Origin: Pseudomonas phage HHBS36_1
Sequence record: PQ287642.1
Reading direction: 5' to 3' (one strand)
DNA: 64,000 nt
Every line of letters begins with the position of its first letter. Position 1 is the first letter of the stretch. Below, piece by piece: positions 44,657 to 45,604 of the stretch. A program made the position numbers and the translations under genes. The notes below the pieces were generated by a model that saw only the letters and a list, made by a program, of their open reading frames with translations, had not been told where the DNA came from and ran no database searches.

Positions 44657-45604
44657 TTAGAGGACGAAACCATCATCAGAACGGTTGTCATCGATATCAA
44701 CGATCGCAGCTCGTTGGGTGTAACGAACTTGCTGACGATGATGTTCCTGTTTTTGATCCAGGAGAGACTTAATCCGCTCTTGGATACCAACCGAGTTGAT
44801 AACGAAGTGCAGTTGCTCAGACAGAGCGTCTTCGTCGTCAGGGGATGCGATACCCACAGTCCGAACAAACGGATTACCATAAGCTACTTCTTTGGAAGCA
44901 TCTGTGTACAGGGATGCGACAGAAATCATCTCAGGGACAGAAGCTGCTTCTTGGCGAGAAGTATGGATATGCAGTTCACACAGTTGCGGTTGAATGTAAC
45001 TATGCTTACTAGTGAAACGTGCCCAGTGATCCAGATCCAGTACATCAAGACGTTCATGTTTCTGATTAGACAGGTAAATCAGAGCATGGACAGCAAATAC
45101 CGCATCTTTGTCGATTTCGGAATACGGAACGCCGTTCACGTTTTCGATCGGACAGATGTTGATCGGGGTGTTGGTTGCAGCAGCGATACCTTCCAGAGTC
45201 TTCATGGTATCGATATCGTTTTGCAGAACCTCAGTGGATTCAATACCACTGACAACGACTGGAATTACAGTTTCACCAGCTTTAGCCAGAGCCGATACAA
45301 TCAGCGGACCAAGAACAGAACCAGAACCACCACCCATAGAAAACAGGACGATATTGAAATCGCCAGCTGGATATCGTTCAAGGAAAGGTGCAATCTGATG
45401 GCGAACCTTAGGCATGATGAATGCACGGTTCTTACCTGCCCCACGAGTACCCTCGGTCAAAAAGACACGATCGATATCATGACTAGAACTTACGTTCTTA
45501 TCGCAGGTGTCAATGTATACCAGATCCGGATGCCATTGAAGGTTTACACCAATATTCAGACCAGCACCACCACAGCAGTATACACGAGTTTTTACTTTAG
45601 TCAT
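44657..45604 (-). CDS. phuZ: PhuZ phage tubulin (tubulin/FtsZ superfamily GTPase)
   Basis: VYCCGGAGLNIGVNL (T1-like loop), GTRGAGKNR, FSMGGGSGSVLGPLI (T4 GGGxGSG), NDIDTMKTLE, HFVINSVG and an acidic C-terminal tail DIDDNRSDDGFVL. Start at the ATG (45604) after AAGAGGAAA. Confidence 0.85.
   Translation of the reverse strand: MTKVKTRVYCCGGAGLNIGVNLQWHPDLVYIDTCDKNVSSSHDIDRVFLTEGTRGAGKNRAFIMPKVRHQIAPFLERYPAGDFNIVLFSMGGGSGSVLGPLIVSALAKAGETVIPVVVSGIESTEVLQNDIDTMKTLEGIAAATNTPINICPIENVNGVPYSEIDKDAVFAVHALIYLSNQKHERLDVLDLDHWARFTSKHSYIQPQLCELHIHTSRQEAASVPEMISVASLYTDASKEVAYGNPFVRTVGIASPDDEDALSEQLHFVINSVGIQERIKSLLDQKQEHHRQQVRYTQRAAIVDIDDNRSDDGFVL

Follow-up and report, generated by a model that had tools for sequence, protein, structure and literature searches.

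The 64,000-nucleotide stretch of DNA from Pseudomonas phage HHBS36_1 (PQ287642.1), referred to below as the window, is almost certainly DNA of a phiKZ-like chimallivirus of the species Pawinskivirus PS119XW, and the gene at 44657..45604 on its minus strand is almost certainly the gene for the PhuZ tubulin of that phage. A first-pass annotation made from the sequence letters had already read the 315-residue protein encoded at these positions as PhuZ, on the basis of its tubulin T1- and T4-loop motifs and its acidic tail, and had taken it together with four fragments of multisubunit RNA polymerase (RNAP) as the mark of a nucleus-forming jumbo phage with two RNAPs. The open reading frame (ORF) is present as described, and its strand, which had not been given, is the minus strand.

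44657..45604, minus strand: phuZ, 315-residue phage tubulin, start codon ATG at 45604

The product of this gene is identified by homology as the PhuZ tubulin, and the gene is already known and annotated. The mechanical ORF list extends the reading frame to 44657..45610 (317 residues) by a GTG start two codons further upstream, at 45610; the ATG is the start chosen for phuZ in the RefSeq annotation of phage vB_PaeM_PS119XW (hereafter PS119XW). The protein, which begins with MTKVKTRVYCCGGAGLNIG, shows 100% amino-acid identity over 315 residues to PhuZ of PS119XW (YP_010660768.1, gp028, 'tubulin PhuZ' in RefSeq), with no difference at the protein level, and the PS119XW gene has the same genomic position and the same neighbours. 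The gene is also present in PA1C, phiHQ, BRkr and phiLBG22, the DNA around it being 99.1-99.5% identical across the five phages, and phuZ is annotated in phage HPP-Temi as well, where the DNA of the phuZ region is ~82-84% identical.

PHROG 4733 ('tubulin PhuZ') is matched end to end (residues 1-315, E 5.3e-105), and the phage-tubulin C-terminal domain TubZ_C_2 (Pfam PF22334) scores 140.4 bits, with a cutoff of 27. In a sequence search of solved structures in the PDB, the best match was PhuZ of phage 201phi2-1 (3r4v, 3rb8 and 3j5v; E ~2e-90, residues 4-314), and phiKZ gp39 (3zbp) was matched at E 7e-63, while chains of FtsZ, TubZ and BtubA reached only E 0.03-0.9. The tubulin fold and the PhuZ identity proposed in the first-pass annotation were therefore upheld decisively by the structure and PHROG searches, and chance is ruled out for the PhuZ and RNAP assignments because their E-values range from 1e-90 to 0.

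The experimentally characterised prototype, PhuZ of the Pseudomonas chlororaphis phage 201phi2-1 (gp59, PhuZ201), likewise has 315 residues and aligns over its full length with only one gap, of one residue, 154 of the 312 aligned columns being identical (49%), although the host of the present phage is P. aeruginosa. The T1 loop CCGGAGLN (residues 10-17) was read from the translation and aligned to the T1 loop of the prototype, in which FAGGTG stands in place of CCGGAG, whereas the T4 tubulin signature GGGSGS (residues 92-97) is kept in the corresponding loop. The catalytic T7-loop aspartates D187 and D190, within a gap-free block (106-208), occupy the same positions as in PhuZ201 ('RLDVLDLD' here vs 'RLDVHDVA'); the D190A variant of PhuZ is catalytically inactive and was used to show that hydrolysis of guanosine triphosphate (GTP) drives dynamic instability (PMC4244570). 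The protein ends in the acidic tail IVDIDDNRSDDGFVL, which is kept in the prototype, and IVDIDDNRSDDGFV here was aligned with IIDADDNVDEDGMV of PhuZ201 in the PDB sequence search. A role of the PhuZ tail in filament assembly was reportedly described by Kraemer et al. in 2012. All three features named in the first-pass annotation (CCGGAG, GGGSGS and the PhuZ-type tail) are accordingly found in the protein. The phiKZ protein gp39 is a full-length homologue of lower identity (36%, E 6e-74 in direct comparison) from a phage that shares the host species and the syntenic block; relative to the protein of the window, gp39 carries 12 inserted residues following residue 54, and it reads GGASGS in place of GGGSGS.

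Species assignment, chimallin and the split RNA polymerases

Positions 1-25000, 40000-50000 and 45000-64000 of the window were used as megablast queries against deposited phage genomes. Collinear matches were found in phiHQ, PA1C, BRkr, vB_PaeM_PS119XW and vB_PaeM_phiLBG22 (five phages in six records, PS119XW having been deposited twice), with 98.0-99.7% identity and 97-100% of each query covered, and HPP-Temi matched the same queries at 82-85%. PS119XW aligns also across 20359..49760 of the window except at the intron site described below, by which 25001..39999 is covered for this phage alone. The window and each deposited genome differ at ~0.3-2% of bases and by a few indels. The species criterion of the International Committee on Taxonomy of Viruses, at least 95% nucleotide identity over a collinear genome, was applied to the window only, and the identity of 98.0-99.7% over the sampled 1..25000 and 40000..64000 lies above this threshold for Pawinskivirus PS119XW, the type isolate of which is PS119XW according to its RefSeq record. 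PA1C, BRkr and phiLBG22 have been treated as isolates of this species, and HPP-Temi represents a proposed second species (PMC11591403). On nucleotide identity, the window is assigned with confidence to a jumbo phage that infects Pseudomonas aeruginosa and belongs to the PA1C-like species Pawinskivirus PS119XW, already sequenced and classified.

In the window, phuZ resides together with a gene for chimallin and with genes for split subunits of the non-virion RNAP (nvRNAP) and the virion RNAP (vRNAP):

25296..27161, minus strand: chimallin (ChmA), nuclear shell protein, phiKZ gp54 homologue (Pfam PF25677 Chimallin_Phikzvirus, 1101.8 bits, full length)
23437..24903, minus strand: nvRNAP beta' N-terminal half, phiKZ gp55 fused to gp56.1 (PDB 7ogp chain A, E 1.3e-239)
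16163..17740, minus strand: fifth, sigma-like nvRNAP subunit, phiKZ gp68 (PDB 7ogp chain B, PHIKZ068, E 2e-203, full length)
10625..12736, minus strand: nvRNAP beta C-terminal half, phiKZ gp71-73 (PDB 7ogp chain C, E 0)
8625..10598, minus strand: nvRNAP beta' C-terminal half, phiKZ gp74 (PDB 7ogp chain D, E 0)
403..1746, minus strand: vRNAP beta' C-terminal half, phiKZ gp80 (BLASTP, 70% identity over 449 residues)

It is chimallin, not PhuZ, that defines the nucleus-forming phages, and as a marker it outweighs the tubulin. The chimallin gene, which adjoins that of the beta' N-terminal half, also matches PHROG 4795 ('nuclear shell protein', E 1e-198) and is annotated as 'nuclear shell protein' in PS119XW. 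Since chimallin itself is encoded, the phage is by homology a chimallivirus. Neither chimallin nor the gp68-like subunit had been listed in the first-pass annotation, whose reading of a phiKZ-like nucleus-forming jumbo phage is sustained, the formation of a nucleus being predicted from gene content. PA1C proteins have represented the nucleus-forming Pseudomonas jumbo phages in the crystal structure of ChmB and in a comparison of ChmA (PMC10643120). The gene order of the window matches phiKZ from gp26 to gp81, beginning with structural genes and the tail sheath, PhuZ, DNA polymerase, chimallin, gp55 and an SbcD-like nuclease and continuing with gp67-gp70, gp71-73, gp74, the helicase gp75 and gp77-gp81.

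The vRNAP of phiKZ consists of gp178, gp149, gp180 and gp80 and its nvRNAP of gp55, gp68, gp71-73, gp74 and gp123; gp68 is needed by the non-virion enzyme for assembly and promoter binding, and the 7ogp chains are those of the solved, active five-subunit nvRNAP (PMC8287921). The matches to the 7ogp chains cover 1-485, 1-525, 9-701 and 1-656 and are therefore end-to-end matches. Full-length homologues of gp55, gp68, gp71-73, gp74 and gp80 are present in phiKZ gene order, amounting to four of the five nvRNAP subunits and one of the four vRNAP subunits, whereas the homologues of gp123, gp149, gp178 and gp180 fall outside the window.

All four RNAP fragments of the first-pass annotation were recovered where it had placed them, all on the minus strand, and each matched its phiKZ counterpart. 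The beta' N-terminal half contains NADFDGDQ (residues 414-421, encoded at 23641..23664), in which the catalytic NADFDGD motif is intact, and a Pfam RNA_pol_Rpb1_2 match (Rpb1 domain 2, 40.5 bits). The gene for the beta C-terminal half is a single uninterrupted ORF of 703 codons; residues 383-454 of its product align with residues 1061-1130 of Escherichia coli beta, and Pfam RNA_pol_Rpb2_6 scores 26.9 bits. An assignment of this ORF to the beta N-terminal half had been suspected from its synteny with gp71-73 and was ruled out by the alignment with E. coli beta 1061-1130 and by Rpb2 domain 6. The two beta' C-terminal fragments are distinct, as had been claimed: the product of 8625..10598 belongs to the gp74 family (PHROG 3015, E 2.6e-230; residues 313-375 aligned with E. 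coli beta' 863-926), and that of 403..1746 to the gp80 family (PHROG 2962, E 6e-157), with a weak paralogous match to PHROG 3015 (E 8.8e-8). Because a PDB sequence search with the latter product gave no match among solved structures, it is identified by BLASTP to phiKZ gp80, a virion protein annotated as 'structural head protein', and by the PHROG matches. Being paralogous, the two beta' C-terminal halves would belong to two different enzymes. Within the window, it is this pair that implies two phage RNAPs and on which the earlier claim of two such enzymes depends, the second being represented by a single vRNAP subunit. Three ORFs on the minus strand (17863..18609, 14509..16143 and 13215..14534) that flank the gene of the gp68-like subunit correspond to PA1C QBX32215, QBX32217 and QBX32218, which are listed as homologues of the nuclear-localised PhiPA3 proteins gp61, gp63 and gp64 (PMC10643120).

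Proposed mechanism and alternative explanations

Based on homology to 201phi2-1 PhuZ, a possible mechanism can be proposed for the protein of the window. PhuZ may use its T1 and T4 loops for GTP binding and may polymerise head to tail, the acidic C-terminal tail docking on the neighbouring subunit, and GTP could be hydrolysed when Asp187 and Asp190 of the T7 loop insert into the nucleotide pocket of the next subunit. Polar, dynamically unstable filaments formed in this manner could assemble into a bipolar spindle that pushes the chimallin-enclosed nucleus to mid-cell. The injected virion RNAP may transcribe the early genes before the non-virion RNAP takes over, and the two enzymes together could make transcription independent of the host. 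What the analysis itself demonstrates is sequence identity, homology, conserved motifs and synteny; from gene content and homology, we infer nucleus formation and spindle function for Pawinskivirus PS119XW.

Several points limit this interpretation of the window and its tubulin. No deposited isolate agrees with the window at every base; the window holds one vRNAP subunit of four, and the nvRNAP beta N-terminal half (the gp123 homologue) lies outside it. The general Pfam Tubulin GTPase domain scores only 26.7 bits in the protein, under the curated cutoff of 33 bits, which is expected because the PhuZ branch is divergent. A literature search returned no direct imaging of a nucleus or a PhuZ spindle for PA1C or PS119XW, and no experimental work on PhuZ or on the formation of a nucleus in Pawinskivirus PS119XW was found in the searchable literature. 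Nothing in the analysis contradicts the identification of PhuZ or of the phage.

The GTPase fold signature that gives this Pfam score is shared with the TubZ/FtsZ/tubulin superfamily, FtsZ and TubZ chains being reached at E 0.03-0.3, and the C-terminal domain carries the Pfam name TubZ_C_2. The protein might on these grounds be taken for a tubulin of the TubZ type, which would segregate the genome of a plasmid or prophage in a type III partition system with TubR and tubC. Such an assignment is extremely improbable: the matches to the TubZ chains 4xcq and 3v3t are marginal (E 0.08-0.1), those to PhuZ structures are better by ~90 orders of magnitude, and the acidic PhuZ tail and the full-length PhuZ PHROG match are both present. 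The gene, moreover, sits in a lytic phiKZ-like genome with chimallin, the surroundings of phuZ in the window lack a partition- or division-gene context, and the Pfam scan of the ORFs flanking phuZ revealed no TubR-like or recognisable DNA-binding neighbour. A different possibility is that the protein is a true PhuZ homologue which has become dispensable or is decaying in this lineage, so that no functional spindle would take part in positioning the nucleus. PhuZ is absent from some chimalliviruses, and its loss of function lowers the phage yield but does not abolish it; the lack of an experiment on Pawinskivirus PS119XW in the literature search would also fit. Decay is nevertheless very improbable in view of the intact ORF and the retention of T1, T4, D187/D190 and the acidic tail in comparison with a relative only 49% identical, of the complete identity to the PS119XW protein, and of the annotation of phuZ in HPP-Temi at ~82-84% DNA identity.

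The RNAP genes could similarly be regarded as pseudogene fragments of one degraded polymerase gene set instead of parts of two working split polymerases, given that the subunits are half-length and scattered and that Pfam detects single domains in them at modest scores. This explanation deserves almost no credence, because the fragments match their phiKZ counterparts from end to end, including the 7ogp chains of a solved and active enzyme, the catalytic NADFDGD motif is intact, and the two beta' C-terminal halves are distinct, conserved paralogue families. A probably functional PhuZ encoded beside split RNAP genes in a chimallivirus of the species Pawinskivirus PS119XW is the reading retained here.

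Nothing biologically new comes from the genes for PhuZ, chimallin and the split RNAPs: for the tubulin, RefSeq already has an identical entry under the name PhuZ. The main value of the identification is the frame that it provides for the rest of the window: annotation can be transferred directly from the PS119XW, PA1C and phiKZ genomes, against which other findings in the window are to be judged. Two small leads concern variation within a jumbo phage species: an intron that some isolates have at the catalytic motif of the RNAP and others lack, and a frameshifted helicase gene.

Variation at the RNA polymerase intron site and in the gp75-like helicase

In PS119XW, the beta' N gene contains a 374-nucleotide insertion (23630..24003 of the PS119XW sequence compared) in place of the 12 nucleotides at 23632..23643 of the window (minus strand). 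Rfam RF00028 identifies the insertion, which contains no ORF, as a group I intron (75.7 bits, gathering score 50, E 3e-19); it is located immediately 3' of the NADFDGD codons. The same intron is probably carried by phiLBG22, as judged from its two-piece match, and it is absent from the window, PA1C, phiHQ and BRkr. Only synonymous differences are seen in the exon codons on either side of the site, GGC GAT / CAG TTG AAT TTG in the window corresponding to GGA GAT / intron / CAA CTT AAC TTA in PS119XW. In phiKZ, an intron carrying an endonuclease gene (gp56, annotated as an HNH endonuclease) interrupts gp55 at the equivalent site (gp55/gp56/gp56.1), and another endonuclease-gene intron (gp72) interrupts gp71-73; in contrast, the window has neither, and both genes are uninterrupted. 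An Rfam scan of the whole window at the gathering threshold found no RNA family and thus no intron or riboswitch, and ARAGORN found no transfer RNA.

The gene for the phiKZ gp75-like superfamily 2 helicase (7034..8568, minus strand) is split into two ORFs, 8131..8568 and 7034..8191, whereas in HPP-Temi it forms one ORF of 511 codons. The split is due to a deletion of one nucleotide, relative to HPP-Temi, inside the Walker A codons at about 8146..8162 (ACG GGA AAG GGA AAA CCC TCA CGA GCC TAG in the window, ACA GGT AAA GGA AAG ACC in HPP-Temi), and the deletion creates two overlapping -1 slippery heptamers, G_GGA_AAG and G_GGA_AAA. All six records of the five deposited isolates of the species agree completely over the 161 nucleotides around it, and the two helicase halves retain 96-98% protein identity to HPP-Temi, while the DNA is only ~83-85% identical. 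A -1 slip on either heptamer would exactly restore the T-G-K-G-K-T P-loop and the downstream frame of 377 codons, and the frameshift product would contain the trans-frame peptide ...TGKGKTLTSLASLA.... When the 93 nucleotides that begin at the slippery site were folded, the structure was not unusual (z = -0.14), and a frameshift stimulator is for that reason not supported. The split could reflect a programmed frameshift, a leaky lesion that is tolerated, or a dead gene; synthesis of the helicase by programmed -1 ribosomal frameshifting is considered rather unlikely.

Neighbouring sequences and genes

One terminator-like element was found downstream of phuZ by a consensus scan:

44633..44650, minus strand: GC-rich hairpin GGGGAGC-TTCG-GCTCCCC followed by TTTTATT, a pattern match only

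The hairpin begins 7 nucleotides past the phuZ stop codon. Sigma-70 promoter-like sites near phuZ occur at chance level (4 found vs 3.3 expected), as expected because the phage uses its own polymerases.

In a Pfam scan of the nine ORFs flanking phuZ, the sole match was a GNAT acetyltransferase at 49743..50126. A patch that is variable relative to PS119XW (49761..51617) starts inside this gene and extends into two ORFs downstream; its first part (49761..50240) is without an alignable counterpart in PS119XW, identity is only 92.6% in the central part (50241..51542), and 51543..51617 does not align. The homologue of the 131-residue product of 49287..49682 (minus strand) is named 'integrase' in the PS119XW RefSeq annotation, and Pfam gives no match for the product at E<=0.01; in a lytic jumbo phage, this label looks unsupported. 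A tenth ORF, 40022..41008 (plus strand), lies on the strand opposite most of its neighbours and encodes a Kelch-repeat beta-propeller of 328 residues (Kelch_6 in Pfam at E 2e-23, with matches to several further Kelch families), a domain unusual for a phage.

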